Positions 2,402 through 63,415 of a stretch of DNA of 64,000 nucleotides are shown here, in pieces; the stretch's first letter is position 1, and every line of letters starts with the position of its first letter. The stretch spans positions 70,432,001 to 70,496,000 of the forward strand of contig OX597831.1 in the NCBI GenBank assembly GCA_951406725.2, in the 5' to 3' direction. The notes beneath the pieces were generated by a model that saw only the letters and a program-made list of their open reading frames with translations, was not told the origin of the DNA and did not search any database. Source of the stretch: Octopus vulgaris (taxonomy: Eukaryota). A program made the position numbers and the translations under genes.

Positions 2402-3270
2402 TATTGGGTTATCCCATAAATAATATGGTTTTCTCAATTGCATGAACTAAAAGTTGGAGGGGGATGGGATAAACTACCTGCATCAACTTGCTATAAAAGC
2501 AGATAGTAATTTTACCTTGTCCTTATTCTTAGTGCAAGTCTTGAAGAATACAGTTCAATGTTAACAGATTTTTTTTTCAAAGCTATAATGGAAGTGACAA
2601 AGGTGCATATTTTGCTTTATGAGTTCAACAAAGGCAACAACACAATGGAAAGTGCAAGGAATATTGATGCAGTATATCAGGATCAGATAATAAGTGTAAG
2701 CCAGTGTCAACAGTGGTTCCAGAAATTCCAAGCCAGAAACTACAACCTAGAAGATGAGCCTTGTCCTGGAAGATCTGTAGAGCTCAACAAGGAACAAACC
2801 CTGGTGGAACAAAATTCCATTGTAACTGTTGAGCAGAGAAGCTTGGATTTGGTCTTTCAACCATTTATTGATGCTAGTGCTAGAAGAAAAATGACCATCT
2901 TTGGTTTCAAGACAAAAGGTGTTCTTCCATCAAGATAATGCTTGGCCACATACAGTGAGGATGACATTCGAAAGGGTGGAGCAGTTTGGATGGGAAATGA
3001 TGCCCCACCCACCCCACCATGTTCACTGGTCATTGCTCCATCTGATTATCATTTATTCTGCAGTCTTCAAAATCATTTGGATAGAAAAAATAAGAATTCT
3101 ATAGACAAGGTCAGAACAGTACTGGAGGAGTATTTCTCATCATGGACAAGTGATTTTTGGGAGAAAGGCCTTGCCAGTCTACCAGATAGATGGAAGAGCA
3201 TTGTAGAAAATGAAAGAAAATATACTTTTGATTAAAAAAGAATTTTGTTTATCTTAATTTTGAAAAATTA
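2402..3270 (+). mobile_element. Tc1/mariner transposon, internally deleted and frameshifted
   Basis: 5' TIR TATTGGGTTATCCCATAAATAAT at 2402; ORFs 2558-3235 give HTH region (QWFQKF...LEDEPCPGR), HQDNAWPH and IAPSDYHLF motifs of a mariner DD34D transposase; first catalytic D region is missing. Confidence 0.9.
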
Positions 3271-4030
3271 AAAATCTGAAATTACGGATGCAAAAGTAAA
3301 AAAAATGTGGTAGACCGAACTGTGCAACATGTCCAAACCTGCTAGAAGGATCAGAATTCCTCTTCAAAGAGGGACAGAAATTCAAGATCAAATCTAATTT
3401 TACTTGTGCCTCTGAAAACATAATTTATGTCATAAAATGCTCTTGCTGCCACCAAGACTACGTGGGATCCACGGGACTATCACTCAGACGTAGATGCACA
3501 CTGCATCGACAACAGATTGCATTCCCAGAATACAGAATGATACCTTTTAGTGAGCACATTGAGAAATGCGCAAAGCAACTACTACCACAATTTTTAATCT
3601 TTCCATTTTACCAATGTGCTATCGGAACACCAACACAAATTAGACTACACAAGAAAACATTCTTCATTGAAAAGTACAAGCCCAGACTTAGCCATTCCAA
3701 CATACTTATACAGAGAAATTCACCCCAAAGGAAAGGCAAAAAATTTTAACCGATTATCTCTCTTACACCGGAAGAAATCACTTATTACCTCCCCTTATCT
3801 AGAACTCTTCTCAACATAAACATAACGATGTAAGAAATTTGAAAAGCTAAATGCGAAACTGGTCATTTCTTCTAAACTATGTCATTGTAAGAAAAAAATT
3901 TATAATATTCTTCAGACATATTAACTCAAATATATATTTTTTAACCTTTTAAAACAAGCCTTCGGTAGTTTTTTCACTTTTTACTATTTTCTATATATTC
4001 AACCACGTGCTTTCACAAACCAACTTTCTC
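3270..4030 (+). mobile_element. Penelope-like element 3' fragment (Neptune-type): Cys-rich linker, GIY-YIG endonuclease and pLTR
   Basis: Frame reads KCGRPNCATC...FTCASENIIYVIKCSCCHQDYVGSTGLSLRRRCTLH...FFIEKYKPRL; followed by a hammerhead motif and ending in (TA)n. Confidence 0.85.
3832..3871 (+). ncRNA. Degenerate minimal type-I hammerhead ribozyme in PLE pLTR
   Basis: AAGAAAT-TTGAAAA-GC-TAAAT-GC-GAAA-CTGG-TC-ATTTCTT: perfect 7-bp stem I, core two substitutions from CTGAAGA. Confidence 0.7.
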
Positions 4031-4189
4031 ATCTATATATATATATATATACATAGTTCATATAACTTAAATTGTTATAAATACAGTAGTCATATTTTAA
4101 TTGTGGGTTTTTGCTTTTCTATTAAGAACTCTACTTGCTTTGAGTACAAAGCAAATTTTTTTGGTTTCCCATTTTCTTTTGCTTTGGAT

Positions 4190-14933: not shown

Positions 14934-16434
14934 GGCACAGTCATGCCTTTGGATGTCAGAAGTGAAAGTAGAAAAATATGACGTCAGACGTCAACTTCGT
15001 GTATTTACGTCGTCATGTTTAAACTTTCGTTTATTTACGTACCACCACGCTAGGTTTATAAAAGCTTGAAGTTAATTTTTAAAATAAATGTGATACTTAT
15101 TCTGTTTAAACTTTATAAATAAATATATTCTTGCATTATTCATTATTGTTTTTAAAAAAGAAATCACACCAAATCCGCACAAATGAACCCCCATGACCAT
15201 CACCGCGATTACATACACCAATCAGAATGACCACTGACCACCACGTGCGTAATTCAAACTTTGAAATTTATTCAGTTAGAAAATCTTTCAGTGTAATATC
15301 AACACGTGCGAAACAATTTTCAATATGGCTTTTGCATATCCAAGTTTAAGAGGAATTAGTCACCGTGATATTACCATTGCCATGGCTACAACAGCAGATA
15401 GCATTAATTGGCTTAAGAGACATGGCCTTTTGAATACCCAGAAAATATGTATATCGTGTGGAGGTAGCATGAGTGAAATAGCGAAAAAAAGTATATCGGA
15501 TGAAGTAATATGGTCGTGTGGAAGGCCTTGTAGAAAATCCGTGTCAATTAGAAAAGGAACATTTTTAGAAAATAGCAAATTGAAGTGTCAACAAATCATA
15601 GATATATTATATTACTGGGCCAAAGAAGATTTAGCAAAAGGAATAGGACAGGAATGTCATTTAGCAAATGTAGCCGTGACAGATTGGAGGAATTTTTGCC
15701 GCGATATATGTGCAGAATATTATGTTGCACAGAATATTAAGCTGGGAGGACCCAACAGAATCGTAGAGATAGACGAAAGCGCGTTTGTTAGAAGAAAATA
15801 TAATGTTGGCCATCGGGTTAAAACGCAGTGGGTGTTTGGTGCTTTAGAAAGAGATACCAGAAGATGTATTTTAGTGGCAGTGGAAGATCAGACAGCGGAC
15901 ACTCTTTTACAAATTATACGAGAGCGTATATTGCCTGGTACAACCATAATTTCCGACCTTTGGCGTTCGTATAATACACTCAGTCAGCTAGGATACAGAC
16001 ATTTGACCGTGAATCATTCAATAAATTTTGTTGATCCAGTAACATTTGCCACAACCAACCACAGAGAATGTTTATGGAAACACGTAAAGAATCGAAATAG
16101 AAGAGAATGTGGAACAGCCAGAAATTTACTTCAGACCCATCTCATCGAATTCATGTGGCGCTATGAATTTAAGGACGATATATTCGGAAAGTTGATAGAG
16201 AGCAAATTCGACAGCTATATCCATGTGTTTGAGATATAGAGGGTATAAGTATCAAGACAGAATGAGTATCGCATTTATTTTTAAACTTAACTTCAAGTTT
16301 ATATTTTGATAATCTCTCCGTTGAAAATAATATTTTTACATTCTAAATAATTTGCGTTTATTAATTTGATATATTTACACGCGTTTTTGATTTTGCGTTT
16401 TTTAATTTGATAAATTATACGGAAAGAAAGTGCC
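14934..16434 (+). mobile_element. Full-length Merlin (IS1595/ISXO2-like) DNA transposon
   Basis: Perfect 8-bp TSD TGAAATTC (14926-14933, 16435-16442); imperfect TIRs GGCACAGTCATGCC and reverse complement GGCACTTTCTTTCC; single transposase ORF inside. Confidence 0.93.
15325..16239 (+). CDS. Merlin/ISXO2-like DDE transposase, 304 aa
   Basis: N-terminal Zn ribbon (CISC...WSC..PC), VEIDES, WVFGALER, PGTTIISDLWRSY, HLTVNHS.NFVDP, TNHRECLW motifs. Confidence 0.92.
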   Translation: MAFAYPSLRGISHRDITIAMATTADSINWLKRHGLLNTQKICISCGGSMSEIAKKSISDEVIWSCGRPCRKSVSIRKGTFLENSKLKCQQIIDILYYWAKEDLAKGIGQECHLANVAVTDWRNFCRDICAEYYVAQNIKLGGPNRIVEIDESAFVRRKYNVGHRVKTQWVFGALERDTRRCILVAVEDQTADTLLQIIRERILPGTTIISDLWRSYNTLSQLGYRHLTVNHSINFVDPVTFATTNHRECLWKHVKNRNRRECGTARNLLQTHLIEFMWRYEFKDDIFGKLIESKFDSYIHVFEI

Positions 16435-17377: not shown

Positions 17378-18650
17378 CTCTTACTCTTTACTCTTTTACT
17401 TGTTTCAGTCATTTGACTGTGGCCATGCTGGAGCACCACCTTTAGTCGAGCAACTCGACCCCGGGACTTATTCTTTTGTAAGCCCAGTACTTATTCTATC
17501 GGTCTCTTTTTGTCGAACCGCTAAGTGACGGGGACGTAAACACACCAGCAGCGGTTGTCAAGCAATGCTAGGGGGACAAACACAGACACACAAAGATACA
17601 CTCAAACACATATATATATATACATATATATATAGGCGCAGGAGTAGCTGTGTGGTAAGTAGCTTGCTTATGAACTACATGGTTCCGGGTTCAGTCCCAC
17701 TGTGTGGCACCTTGGGCAAGTGTCTTCTACTATAGGCTCGGGCCGACCAAAGCCTTGTGAGTGGATTTGGTAGACGGAAACTGAAAGAAGCCTGTCGTAT
17801 GTATATATATATGTATGTGCGTGTATGTTTGTGTGTCTCTGTTTGTCCCCCTGGCATTGTTTGACAACCGATGCTGGTGTGTTTATGTCCCCGCCACTTA
17901 GCGGTTCGGCAAAAGAGACCGATAGAATAAGTACTGGGCTTACAAAGAATAAGTCCTGGGGTTGAGTTGCTCGATTAAAGGCGGTGCTCCAGCATGGCCA
18001 CAGTCAAATGACTGAAACAAGTAAAAAGAGAAAAAAAAAAAGATATAGGCGCAGGAGTGGCTGTGTGGTAAGTAGCTTGCTAACCAACCACATGGTTTCG
18101 GGTTCAGTCCCACTGCGTGGCATCTTGGGCAAGTGTCTTCTGCTATAGCCCCGGGCCGACCAATGCCTTGTGAGTGGATTTGGTAGACGGAAACTGAAAG
18201 AAGCCTGTCGTATATATGTATATATATATATATATATACATATATGTATGTGTGTGTCTGTGTTTGTCACCCTTGCATTGCTTGACAACCGATGCTGGTG
18301 TGTTTACGTCCCCGTCACTTAGCGGTTCGGCAAAAGAGACCGAAAGAATAAGTACTGGGCTTACAAAGAATAAGTCCCGGGGTCGATTTGCTCGACTAAA
18401 GGCAGTGCTCCAGCATGGCCGCAGTCAAATGACTGAAACAAGTAAAGAGTAAAAGAGAGTATATGACGGGCTTCTTTCAGTTTCTGTCTACCAAATCCAC
18501 TCACAAGGCTTTGGTCGGCCCAAGGCTATAGTAGAAGACACTTGCCCAAGGTGCCACACAGTGGGACTGAACCCGGAACCATGTGGTTGGTAAGCAAGCT
18601 ATTTACCACACAGTCACTCCTGTGCCTACTTACCACACAGCCACTCCTGA
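17378..18650. mobile_element. Nested CORE-type SINE cluster: a minus-strand copy split at its (TA)n by two tandem plus-strand copies (17635-18035, 18048-18460)
   Basis: 3' half on - at 17378-17610, 5' half on - at 18463-18650, two complete + copies between them. Confidence 0.88.
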
Positions 18651-27198: not shown

Positions 27199-28004
27199 CT
27201 GAAATGAAAGGAAGGAAAAAAAATGCAGAAAAAATAAATAAGATAAATCAATTTAAATCGAAGGATGCAACTAAATTTAAAATAGTAGGCAATCAAGGGA
27301 GAAATATGTAAATAGTGTGCTAAGAATTACAATTGGCAATCTGAAGTTGAGACAGAGATAGAAGTTTATAGGCATACTAGTATATCCATACCATCAAAAA
27401 TGGCAGTTATATATTCATCATTTTTTTTTTTTCAGTTTTGAAAGAATTAAGCTGAAAATAGTATTTGATAACTGCATCATCATGACATACATTCCATTTA
27501 TTTGATAAAGATTTATATAGTAAAAGTAATTAAAGTTTTATTGAAAATGTTTTGGAAGTCCACATTCAAAGAGAATTAAATATGAGGGAAAGTTAAATAT
27601 AAAATGTTTTTACATTTTATGGAGTTGAAAACAATAAAATTGTCTTTTAAGATTTCTCCAACAATAATTCTGTTAAATTACTGGTGAGCATCTGCCATCA
27701 AAAACGACTGCATTTCAAATATATATTTAAAGTTATTCATATTAATGACTGATGCCAAAAAATGCAGAATAATTCTACAGAGCTTATTGTTCACAGTCTT
27801 GTTACTTTGGTTCATGTGAATCATATTACTGACAACATCCATTGGAAATTATGCTCCTTAAAAGGGGCTGAACCCATAACCTTATTTTAAATTCTACTAC
27901 AAAACGTTGGGATAAAAAGTTGTATAAACAGTATAAATAAACAATTTAGTGGGACAGAAAAGATATGTAGGTGCAGAAAAGATATGTAGGGGACAGAAAA
28001 GATA

Positions 28005-29276: not shown

Positions 29277-32565
<3,289 letters not shown>

Positions 32566-36014: not shown

Positions 36015-36138
36015 CGTATAAGATAAAACTTACTTGGAAAGGATGTGTTGTGTTCGATCATATAATAGTATAAATAATATATAAATATATGCATATGCAT
36101 ACATATATGTACATACCTACATATATATGTATATATAC

Positions 36139-36913
36139 ATGCATGTATGGGTACAGGACATGAAAAACCGTAGACACGAGAAAACGAAAACATAAAAACA
36201 AAAACATAGAAAACAAACATTTTTCTGAACAATAGAAAAAAAACAACAGAGAAACGAGACAGGCAACATAAAGAATATTCCCCTCATCAGTTGTTCCAGT
36301 TTCATCTACTCAACGTTTTGAAGGTAAGGACAATACGCAACTTCGTTGAAACAGTCCTTCCCACAAAGCAAGTTAAATAAAATTTGGGATTTTTTGCGGA
36401 GAGTGAAAGTGGTAACAAAAACAGGACAGTGAGAACAAGACAGGCAAAAAAAATACCGTCAGGGCTGTTAAACCAAAATGATGTGAAAAATTATGAATGC
36501 TGGAAAGACAAGCTATGAGAGACAGGTAAAAGCATGTCTTGTCTTTACGAAGGAAGTGAGAGAAAGAAAATAGCGATGAGAGAGTCAAGGAGGAAGAGTG
36601 AGAGAGAGAGAGAGAGAGGGGAAACGGTGAAGGGAAGAAGAGAAGAATAGGAAAAAAGTTCCAAATTTTATTTAATTTGCTTTGTGGGAAGGACTCTTTC
36701 AACGAAGTTGCGTATTGTCCTTACCTTCAAAACATGGAGTAGATGAAACATGAACAACTGATGAGGGGAATGTTCTTTACATTGCCTGTCTCGTTTCTCT
36801 GTTGTTTTTTTTCTGTTGTTCAGAAATAAAGTTTGTTTTCTATGCTTTTGTTTTTATGTTTTTGTTTTCTCATTGTGTCTACGTTTTTTGATGCCCTGTA
36901 CCCATATATGCAT
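36139..36913. repeat. Inverted repeat element (arms about 36139-36388 and 36661-36913), PLE-terminus-like
   Basis: ATGGGTACAGG...TAAATAAAATTTGG versus CCAAATTTTATTTA...CCTGTACCCAT; purine-rich spacer; (TA)n on both sides. Confidence 0.9.
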
Positions 36914-36924
36914 ATATATATATA

Positions 36925-37360
36925 CGTAAAGTATACTAGCCATCTCAATATGGCTAACCACTAAGGCTGGGTGTTACTGTAGCTTTTAGCCCCAGGAGAT
37001 CATCGTCTCCAGCTGGCTTTAGGCACACTTTCTGTGCCCTTATGATTTTTGCAAAGGGAGGTCATCCCTCTCTCGTAAACCTAAGTGATACGCACGGACT
37101 GCAGTTTCGAGGTATTTGCCTCTTGTCAACATACGGTAATCACCGGTTTTCGATGAAGAGAGACCTGTTTGCAAATATCTATTTAATGTTTTTCCCACTA
37201 ACTACTGTCACTGATTTCAAAAAACTGTCTGCAAGTAATAATAAATCTCTGAACGAGATGTAAACAGTAACCGCTCGACATCGTAAAGTACTGAGACGGC
37301 TAGTATACTTTACGTTGTCGAGCGGTTACTGTTTATATCTCGTTCAGAGATTTATTATTG
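36925..37360 (-). mobile_element. 357-nt hammerhead-containing monomer plus inverted junction-spanning copy (retrozyme or PLE pLTR-like)
   Basis: CGTAAAGTA at 36925 and 37282; 37289-37360 is the reverse complement of end+start sequence. Confidence 0.8.
37091..37135 (-). ncRNA. Minimal type-I hammerhead ribozyme with two core transitions
   Basis: Minus strand CGTATG-TTGACAA-GAGG-CAAATA-CCTC-GAAA-CTGCAG-TC-CGTGCG; palindromic stem III ACTGCAGT, GUC cleavage triplet. Confidence 0.8.
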
Positions 37361-37397
37361 CTCTCTCTCTCTCTATATATATATATATACACACATA

Positions 37398-37445
<48 letters not shown>

Positions 37446-49207: not shown

Positions 49208-49232
49208 TATGAAATACAAACTAAATTAACAG

Positions 49233-49610
49233 ATTAAGGTTCAGAAAATGGAGATGTAATATTAATGTAATTTATTAACTGTAAAAATTCAACATGGTCT
49301 CTTACAGCTGTTTCGATTTTGCCCAAAGAATTGAATTCCAGTGATTAAAACATTTTATTGGGCAAAATCTCGTCAGAGGAAAAGAAAATACATACGGTTA
49401 GGTAATTAGATGCTCTAGAAGAATAACATCTAATAATTTAACTGTATGTCTTTTCGATTCCTCTGATGAGATTTTGCCCGATAAAATGTTTTAATCACTA
49501 GAATTTAATTCTTTGGGCAAAAATCAAAACAGATGAAAGAGAACATGTTGAATTTTTGCAGTTAATAAATTATATTAATGCTACATCTCCATTTTCTGAA
49601 TCTTAATTTG
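49233..49610. repeat. Fold-back inverted repeat, about 180-bp arms, about 14-nt loop
   Basis: TTCAGAAAATGGAGATGTA...ATTAGATG / CATCTAAT...TACATCTCCATTTTCTGAA; the right arm carries a mutated hammerhead (CTGATGAG at 49463, GAAA changed to AAAA). Confidence 0.9.
49298..49381 (-). ncRNA. Type-I hammerhead with intact core and long stem II
   Basis: Minus strand TCCT-CTGACGA-GATTTTGCCCA...TGGGCAAAATC-GAAA-CAGCTG-TA-AGAG. Confidence 0.85.
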
Positions 49611-49909
49611 AATATTTATTTGTATGAGGAATACTATTATTCACAAAAACATAATAGGCAACAAACCAGAAATTCATCGGGTATTTTTTATCCCTTAATG
49701 AGGATATTTTACCTCTGTTTAAACTTATATATACATATGTATATATATAAACAATTGCAGCATGGAAGGTGTTTGTAAGCCATTTAAGAAACACACAAAA
49801 GCCGTTCGATTCACTTCAACATTTAAGTTTAATTTGTCAAAATTTTTTTGTCGCTTTAAGACCGCGCCCTGTTCACTGACAAAACTCCGTATGCAAGTAC
49901 ATCTCCGTA

Positions 49910-59487: not shown

Positions 59488-59800
59488 TCTACTCTAGGCA
59501 CAAGGCCCGAAATTTTTGGGGAGGGGGCCAGTCGATTAGATCGACCCCAGTATGCAACTGGTACTTAATTTATCAATCCCAAAAGGATGAAAGGAAAAAT
59601 CGACCTCCGCGGAATTTAAACCCAGTCTGCCGTTACTTTCTGGGTTCAAATTCCGCCGAGGTCGACTTTGCCTTTCATCCTTTCGGGGTCGATTAAATAA
59701 GTACCAGTTATGCACTGGGGTCGATGTAATCGACTCAATCCGTTTGTCTGTCCTTGTTTGTCCCCTCTATGTTTAGCCCCTTGTGGGTAGTAAAGAAATA
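59488..59800. mobile_element. Two OK-like SINE parts fused in inverted orientation (59488-59623 -, 59625-59800 +)
   Basis: AAAGGATGAAAGGAAAAATCGACCTCCGCGGAATTT faces AAATTCCGCCGAGGTCGACTTTGCCTTTCATCCTTT. Confidence 0.85.
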
Positions 59801-61152: not shown

Positions 61153-61195
61153 CATATATATATATATGTGCATGTGTGTGTATATATATATATAT

Positions 61196-61482
61196 ATATA
61201 TTAGAAGAAATGAGGTACTCAGAAAATCGGATGGTTTATATTTACAGATATTTATTTGTATATTACATTTTTTACATATATATATCATATAACTTAGATC
61301 ATTAGCACTTTCTCCCATTCTAGTGGGGTTTTCAAATTTGAAAACCCCACTAGAATGGGAGAAAGTGCTAATACATGATCTAAGTTATATGATATATATA
61401 TATAAAAAATGTAATATACAAATAAATATCTGTAAATATAAACCATCCGATTTTCTGAGTACCTCATTTCTTCTAATATATA
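61196..61482. repeat. Near-perfect spacer-less palindrome, about 140-bp arms
   Basis: Centre ...GGGGTTTTCAAA|TTTGAAAACCCC... between 61336 and 61337. Confidence 0.95.
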
Positions 61483-61609
61483 ATACCTGTACATCATCTC
61501 CAAACCTTCCAATATATATATGTATATATATATATGAACAAATGAGAAACAGAGAAAAATAGATTCATGAGATTCTTTATTAATTACAACAATCATTTTG
61601 TTTTATTAT

Positions 61610-63034: not shown

Positions 63035-63196
63035 AAACTTGCTTCTCAACCAAACGGTTCTGGGTCCAGTCCCACTGTGCAGTGCCCTGGGCAAGTATCT
63101 TCTACCATAGCCTCAGGCCAACGAAAACCTTGAGTGGATTTGGTAGATGGTAAGTGAAAGAAGTCCATCATGTGTGTATATACATACATACATACA

Positions 63197-63231
<35 letters not shown>

Positions 63232-63260
63232 TAGTGAGGAAAACGGACGTTAAACGATGA

Positions 63261-63297
<37 letters not shown>

Positions 63298-63367
63298 TGT
63301 ATGTATGTATATACACACATGATGGACTTCTTTCACTTACCATCTACCAAATCCACTCAAGGTTTTC

Positions 63368-63415
<48 letters not shown>

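Follow-up and report, generated by a model that had tools for sequence, protein, structure and literature searches.

The repeat studied here lies at positions 36925 to 37290 of a 64-kb stretch of Octopus vulgaris DNA, referred to as the window. Two copies of the 9-nt sequence CGTAAAGTA, at 36925-36933 and 37282-37290, give the period of 357 nt that a sequence-only reading had assigned to the unit. The minus strand is the sense strand of the unit since it carries the hammerhead ribozyme described below. In this orientation, the full copy (36925-37290, minus strand) consists of the 357-nt unit and the 9-nt terminal repeat, and its 3' end at 36925, which abuts a (TA)n microsatellite, is the inner, tail-less end of the repeat family. 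An inverted, 5'-truncated copy is joined to it head-to-head at 37289-37360 (plus strand). The reverse complement of this arm reads as 37236-37290 followed directly by 36934-36950, with identity at 67 of 72 positions. In the arm, the final 17 nt of the unit are followed by the period point and then by 55 nt made up of the 9-nt repeat and a 46-nt 'tail', the outer end of which maps to unit position 37236. Only 9 nt of the junction at the period point are present in the forward copy, and the earlier claim that the inverted copy joins the end of the unit to its start was confirmed.

The two copies overlap by 2 nt (TA) at 37289-37290, and the hairpin arms are separated by a 15-nt spacer. In sense terms, the locus consists of a 366-nt and a 72-nt copy placed head-to-head, with both 3' ends directed outward into microsatellite DNA, read from the sequence as a (TA)n target on the left (36903-36924) and a (CT)n(TA)n target on the right (37361-37440). 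The ends of the two copies, at 36925 and at the equivalent of 37236, are 46 nt apart. No discrete target-site duplication was discernible in these flanks. Directly to the left of the element, positions 36130-36922 contain a structure with inverted 270-bp arms (91% identity) and a 257-bp spacer, set in TA-rich repeats; no hammerhead was found there in the scans, and the structure is possibly the stump of a Penelope-like element (PLE) devoid of a ribozyme, or a MITE.

The unit has a GC content of 42%. The longest stop-to-stop frames located wholly within it encode 101 residues in the antisense (plus) orientation and 53 residues in the sense orientation, and tblastn comparison of five PLE proteins with the unit gave a best E value of 0.97, in agreement with the earlier proposal that the unit is devoid of coding capacity. 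An ORF encoding RT and GIY-YIG modules between pLTRs is absent from the locus (36925-37360), and a tRNA search on the unit was negative. No second copy of the 357-nt family was found in the 64-kb window. A 56-nt match at 27713-27762 (71%, AT-rich) was considered for this role and set aside.

A type I hammerhead is located at 37091-37135 (minus strand). It comprises a 6-bp helix I, a 4-bp helix II with the CAAAUA loop of the Rfam consensus and of the Schistosoma ribozyme, and the GAAA and GUC motifs, and was detected at 37129 by a type I descriptor. In a control with 200 block-wise dinucleotide shuffles of the window, no match was obtained with the strict descriptor, which required at least 6 bp in helix I and at least 4 bp in helix II, and 0.02 matches per shuffle were obtained with a loose descriptor. 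The Rfam family RF00163 aligned with 45 of 45 positions in a targeted 73-nt scan only, with a score of 18.9 bits (E value of 0.012) that falls below the gathering score of 34. This family was not listed in the 436-nt scan of 36925-37360 and was absent among the best 150 of the 226 Rfam matches for the whole window. Matches of the hairpin to miRNA and sRNA families scored below the gathering thresholds and were discarded as generic hairpin matches. The core UUGACAA (37129-37123, minus strand) harbors the U3-A8 covariant of the C3-G8 pair, which occurs in Schistosoma PLEs (PMC4209133) and has been reported to be active in vitro (PMC3088659). Cleavage is predicted to occur after GUC, between 37097 and 37096.

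Helix III is formed by the 8-nt palindrome ACUGCAGU (37098-37105, minus strand), which is predicted to pair between two hammerheads. When two strands were co-folded, they paired through an 8-bp intermolecular helix III and reached a minimum free energy of -42.5 kcal/mol, versus -16.4 kcal/mol for one strand. In the minimum-energy fold of the monomer, helices I and II were formed and the active core was not. These models predict that the ribozyme works as a dimer via its palindromic helix III. The bases of the tertiary-contact triad conserved in hammerheads (PMC2632901) are present, namely U 37090 and C 37136 in an internal loop and A 37113 in loop 2, and may engage in the corresponding contact. 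In PLEs, the hammerhead is as a rule of a minimal form devoid of helix III and of tertiary contacts (PMC7761336; PMC6155905), and the minimal class also displays a long helix II (PMC4209133; PMC6155905). The octopus motif has a helix III, a CAAAUA loop, the U and C of the internal loop, and a helix II limited to 4 bp, and its helix sizes and short palindromic helix III are those of the canonical metazoan geometry (PMC4209133). Thus, the site, the type and the palindrome noted in the sequence-only reading were retained, but not the qualifier 'minimal': by its sequence features, including the RF00163 alignment and the contact bases, the hammerhead at 37091-37135 is of the canonical type I.

The unit was predicted to fold at -110.1 kcal/mol (z score of -4.58; none of 100 shuffles as stable), and the circular form gave a z score of -4.7. 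The opposite strand also folded with a z score of -4.04, so that the fold alone does not set the strand. A long imperfect stem (37041-37182, minus strand) extends helix I and bears the internal loop containing U 37090 and C 37136. A 3'-terminal stem is predicted between an arm at 36964-36983 (minus strand) and the tail segment at about 37264-37290, enclosing the inner 3' end; within it, 36973-36980 paired with 37264-37271 in both the linear and the circular folds. Taken alone, this domain gave a weakly significant z score of -1.6, and we regard it as a candidate recognition structure for the RT. When 27 listed variants of the family (40 of 82 rows listed) were placed on the single-copy fold, 6 kept a pair, 8 broke a pair, and 13 were located at unpaired positions, so that the wider fold is weakly supported by covariation.

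Parts of the stretch were found in 20 of the 24 sequencing runs listed, which carried four organism labels. The family was analysed at a threshold of 82% likeness in runs X1, X2, X11, and X18, which originate from four studies and provided 2464, 4860, 264, and 79 contigs aligned to 36925-37290, respectively. Runs X1 and X2 are DNA-like, X11 and X18 are guessed to be RNA, and no run is recorded as RNA; the 3'-weighted profile described below is based on contigs from such runs and was not counted for or against expression or circles. Only the shape of the depth profile was used because contig depth is one figure per contig rather than a copy number and because diverged subfamilies add to the gradient. 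In all four runs, summed depth at the 3' end was 53- to 190-fold above the trough at 37159-37210, with a second, 13- to 42-fold rise at the tail segment. Depth over the hammerhead core amounted to 2 to 6% of the 3' value, compared to 20 to 34% over 37237-37262. Most copies of the family appear to be short 3' stumps lacking the ribozyme. The step at the 37237 bin was 1.9- to 6.0-fold. The inverted arm of the locus ends at this step and carries the majority letter at 37236. The rise was gradual in X2 (1.9-fold at 37237, and already up from 37211), indicating that the outer 3' end is not one sharp site in that run. Part of the gradient may originate from sister subfamilies below 82% likeness, as loose contig ends were detected at 37040 and 37116. 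Loose ends at 36926 (33 and 42) showed low agreement (0.53 to 0.61) and may include diverged tails. The loose ends at 36987, present in all four runs, carry a sister-subfamily tail matching the complementary strand of the 3' stem arm, which suggests that the pairing of the 3' stem may be conserved across subfamilies. In X2, depth falls across the GUC from about 400k (37079) to 67k (37109), a decrease that might have pointed to cleaved templates. This interpretation was rejected since depth falls equally, from 986k to 144k, at 37033-37062, and no accumulation of ends appeared among those listed.

Same-strand joints going back by 357 nt were present in at least 16 contigs (6 in X1, 7 in X2, 1 in X11, and 2 in X18), with sides of 25 to 41 nt; one such joint per run could be the arm of this very locus. 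Opposite-strand joints at other positions of the unit numbered at least three among the rows listed (15 of 17), each in one contig. No contig spanning the whole monomer was listed in the four runs, and a degenerate 25-nt motif of the unit had no match in viral or metagenome contigs.

The depth share of C3 was 1.9% in X1, 0.9% in X2, 13.7% in X11, and 48.5% in X18, the latter value corresponding to one contig. The rarity of C3 in the two large runs indicates that U3 is the norm in the family. The view that the core of this copy is mutated was therefore abandoned, UUGACAA being the usual form of a covariant reported to be active. G8 accounted for 49, 11, 43, and 25% of depth in X1, X2, X11, and X18, respectively, the X1 value probably being contributed mostly by one deep variant contig. 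A loose end at 37116 shared by 11 contigs in X2 reads the canonical core, which suggests that a C3-G8 sister group may exist. At 37131, 91 to 100% of depth turns a G-U pair of helix I into G-C. Variation clustered in loop 2 among the variants listed. Variants that would damage helix II or III were located, among the 40 of 82 rows listed, at 37109 (10 to 33% of depth) and at 37100 (0 to 23%).

In published descriptions, PLE insertions are 5'-truncated and bear, at the 5' end, a truncated copy in inverted orientation; a tail of 30 to 40 bp may be present at one end (PMC8557442; PMC3846280). The octopus locus displays a head-to-head inverted 5'-truncated copy and (TA)n flanks, and its family a 3'-weighted depth gradient. 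Its two 3' ends correspond to the optional tail, although their 46-nt distance exceeds the published length. Mobilisation of the PLE type, as put forward from the sequence, was thus supported by the inverted copy, the two 3' ends, and the (TA)n target. For an Anolis PLE studied in vitro, the tail was found to be the stretch between two internal start sites of the RT, the enzyme cut and extended both strands of AT-rich DNA, and insertion proceeded mainly from unprocessed RNA, unimpaired by mutations in the ribozyme (PMC11167929).

The junction between 37290 and 36925 had been taken as evidence for a circular or tandem template. The two arms together indicate a template of at least 412 nt, longer than one unit, and this part of the proposal was kept. 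The junction itself most plausibly represents the inner start site of the RT rather than a circularisation scar since it matches the inner 3' end of the family, and a circle generated by the hammerhead would close at 37097/37096. The long copy extends 194 nt past the GUC, indicating that the template was either uncleaved or re-ligated. A tandem or partial-tandem transcript fits these observations as well as a re-ligated circle.

Together, these results lead us to propose, with a probability of about 0.78, that the element is a short, non-autonomous retroelement of the retrozyme type, equipped with a hammerhead, and that the RT/GIY-YIG protein of a PLE copies it in trans. In the corresponding scheme, an RNA of at least 412 nt (tandem, partial-tandem, or re-ligated circle) would be bound at its structured 3' domain, and the PLE endonuclease would nick both strands of the (TA)n target. 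Internal starts of the RT would take place 172 and 218 nt downstream from the GUC, at two sites separated by about 46 nt. One cDNA, of 366 nt, would traverse the hammerhead in its uncleaved or re-ligated state, the other would stop after 72 nt, and the two would be joined at the 2-nt TA microhomology. The hammerhead itself would most likely cut multimeric transcripts as a dimer, releasing monomers, with or without subsequent circularisation.

Potential helpers were searched for in the window and in contig collections. A PLE fragment at 3300-3749 (plus strand) contains the motifs of a CxxC linker and of a GIY-YIG module and is 91% identical to the homologue P0001. Pfam reported no family for this fragment, and its identification rests on these motifs and on its homologues, of which P0002 matched the RT family PF00078 and two others the GIY-YIG family PF01541. 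A degenerate hammerhead-like motif of the U3-A8 type is located at 3832-3871 (core at 3839), 90 nt after the stop codon of the GIY-YIG frame. About 170 nt further, the fragment (3300-4035) ends in (TA)n, the corresponding distance in the unit being 172 nt. Alignment searches with PLE proteins confirmed none of 22 candidates in viral contigs and 4 of 108 in metagenome contigs (loci L001 to L004). Locus L001 is a near-complete PLE encoding RT, CxxC linker, and GIY-YIG modules. The same 7-nt core occurs there 69 nt after the stop codon, followed by (TA)n, with a helix I of only 3 bp; the motif was obtained in one of the four loci by a relaxed scan run without a shuffle control, and the scan detected no hammerhead in the other three. 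At positions 1-3176 of L001, an N-terminal frame of 308 residues, open at its 5' end, overlaps the 754-residue RT-endonuclease frame. No nucleotide or protein similarity was detected between the unit and the 3300-4035 fragment or L001 to L004, so that these sequences indicate a clade rather than a parent. As judged from the CxxC linker, the helper probably belongs to the Neptune/Nematis type, and this module has been hypothesised to mediate the targeting of microsatellites (PMC8557442).

Mussel retrozymes are 350- to 390-bp hammerhead repeats expressed as circles, with PLEs as candidate helpers (PMC7229834; PMC7761336). The octopus unit falls within the sequence features of retrozymes, being short (about 150 to 450 nt), low in GC, non-coding, self-paired, and equipped with a type I hammerhead. 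It resembles those of Mytilus galloprovincialis in all these respects, including unit length and the canonical form of the ribozyme, and in the continuity of the sequence across the period point (PMC7229834). It differs from them by its U3-A8 core, by the apparent dominance of 3' stumps, and by an explicit PLE tail and inverted copy, neither inversion nor truncation being mentioned in the main text of that study (PMC7229834). In addition, the Mytilus retrozymes are known as circles, whereas the family of 36925-37360 is known from DNA and contig sequences. With endonuclease-positive PLEs (PMC3846280; PMC8557442; PMC11167929), the locus shares the head-to-head inverted 5'-truncated copy, the tail at one end, the microhomology joint, the AT-rich or (TA)n target, and a hammerhead upstream from the 3' end, with a U3-A8 pair as in the Cercyon PLEs of Schistosoma (PMC4209133). 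In contrast to these PLEs, the unit has no ORF, a period of 357 nt rather than about 3 kb, a canonical hammerhead, and a 46-nt tail.

Retrozymes of Xenopus are homologous to pLTRs (bioRxiv 10.64898/2026.07.22.740005). These elements and the MRC1-type elements of Chlamys (PMC8557442) are, like the octopus unit, short, non-coding, and continuous head-to-tail, and are moved by PLE enzymes, as is proposed for the octopus unit. Unlike the Xenopus retrozymes, the 357-nt unit has no matching pLTR in 3700-4040 or in L001 to L004. Similarity to the SINE-like Sm-alpha hammerhead repeats of Schistosoma (RF00163; PMC2632901; PMC6765202) extends to helix sizes, the CAAAUA loop 2, and the U and C at the contact positions, but not to helix sequences or to the core, and no tRNA that would indicate a Pol III promoter was found in the unit. 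The kind of element is thus already described, as mussel retrozymes and as animal retrozymes regarded as non-autonomous derivatives of PLEs, and the octopus family is a further member. As the sequence-only reading had anticipated, no cephalopod hammerhead or retrozyme family was found in a mainly open literature; repeat libraries (Repbase, Dfam, Zenodo) and the supplements of earlier surveys may contain one. Hammerheads, retrozymes, and ribozymes are not mentioned for O. vulgaris in the accessible part of the supplement of PMC13282606. The terms octopus and cephalopod do not appear in the available text of PMC7229834, nor do octop and squid in that of PMC7761336.

A stricter version of the proposed reading, nested within it, supposes tandem arrays, dimeric cleavage, and abundant ligated 357-nt circles serving as the RT template. 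The size and GC content (42%) of the unit, its circular fold (z score of -4.7), the canonical hammerhead with its contact bases and palindromic helix III, the recurrence of the 357-nt joint across runs, and the 194 nt copied beyond the GUC from an uncleaved or re-ligated template all suit this version. An uncleaved tandem transcript accounts for the same facts, however, and no array or multimer was found among the contigs listed. Moreover, the reconstituted PLE used mainly unprocessed RNA and tolerated ribozyme mutations (PMC11167929), and only one of nine Xenopus retrozyme dimers was cleaved in vitro (bioRxiv 10.64898/2026.07.22.740005). We consider it a possible but rather doubtful refinement. 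Alternatively, an autonomous PLE might have left the locus as an ordinary pLTR stump; the 357-nt period would then be local or reflect a minor, internally deleted form, and most long copies would be attached to an RT-endonuclease ORF. Its layout is that of a textbook PLE insertion (PMC8557442; PMC3846280), PLEs account for 6.83% of the O. vulgaris assembly with 190 families (PMC13282606), and other head-to-head palindromes occur in (TA)n-rich DNA of the window. Unaligned sequence was also present in the contigs, with 375 bases upstream (in sense terms) of 37240 in record 8 of X1 and sequence on both sides in record 24 of X18. A 27-codon frame starting with ATG crosses the period point, as do the starts of PLE ORFs, but a frame of this length is expected by chance. 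The sequence upstream from the hammerhead is non-coding and returns to the tail segment, and record 7 of X1, records 29 and 32 of X2, and records 23 and 24 of X18 link the hammerhead, the middle, and the tail segment. The absence of any tblastn match of the unit to PLE proteins and the canonical form of the hammerhead, in a group where minimal forms prevail, also render this explanation improbable.

An origin of the inverted copy at the DNA level, by fold-back or recombination, or an assembly artefact limited to one locus, would be consistent with the location of the hairpin beside microsatellites, and the 9-nt repeat could permit a second template switch. Against this origin, two switches would be needed, the arm differs at 5 of 72 positions and bears the family letter at 37236, and the same-strand joint was found in at least 16 contigs from four runs and four studies. 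We regard such an origin as very improbable. The preferred reading remains a non-autonomous retroelement copied by a PLE protein in trans.

In its most far-reaching form, this reading would describe a cephalopod retrozyme of high copy number; its RNA, a circle of 357 nt, would directly serve a Neptune-type PLE protein as template, with two RT starts 46 nt apart in a stem formed only at the junction and reverse transcription through the re-ligated site. This form is speculative, and in our estimate unlikely. If true, retrozyme circles would be connected with target-primed reverse transcription by PLEs through a direct structural footprint, and the U3-A8 core shared with the helper lineage would mark a common origin. 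The link between retrozyme circles and PLEs has been treated as a hypothesis, PLEs being the favoured helpers on the basis of co-occurrence and pLTR homology (bioRxiv 10.64898/2026.07.22.740005; PMC7761336). The preprint argues from co-occurrence, homology, and trees rather than from insertion ends, for a sample of 31 vertebrates, 3 insects, and 1 anthozoan that includes no mollusc (bioRxiv 10.64898/2026.07.22.740005). A unit combining a canonical ribozyme with the full end signature of PLEs offers a compact system for studying retrozyme mobility and the role of hammerheads in PLEs. Such a system could show whether RT starts are fixed, whether 5' truncations accumulate at the GUC, as from a cleaved template, or pass through it, as from an uncleaved or circular one, and which PLE protein binds the 3' stem. 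If no circles exist, the family is one more non-autonomous PLE family. The family also suggests that part of the unclassified short repeats of a host are 3' stumps of such an element.

Other candidate mobile elements were noted in the window. A second head-to-head palindrome at 49214-49625 (85% identity) harbors a hammerhead at 49376 (minus strand) with a 12-bp helix II, a canonical core, a palindromic helix III, and a weak helix I, and is a probable PLE pLTR stump. Further local palindromes were observed at 61154-61525, 63121-63369, and 59530-59735, and in the first of these the joint lies off centre and (TA)n flanks are present, as in the inverted stumps of PLEs. A mariner transposase fragment (Mos1 HTH) is present at 2510-2938 (plus strand). 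An ISXO2-like transposase frame of 319 residues (PF12762) is located at 15280-16239 (plus strand), flanked by 48-bp inverted repeats near 15058-15105 and 16257-16304, and is presumably of the Merlin type. A frameshifted LINE at 29650-32373 (minus strand) matches RT and PHD-finger domains; we take it to be RTE-like. Finally, two SINE-like repeats, also present elsewhere in the window and assumed to resemble Octopus SINEs, form a cluster of nested copies in direct and inverted orientation at 17387-18628.
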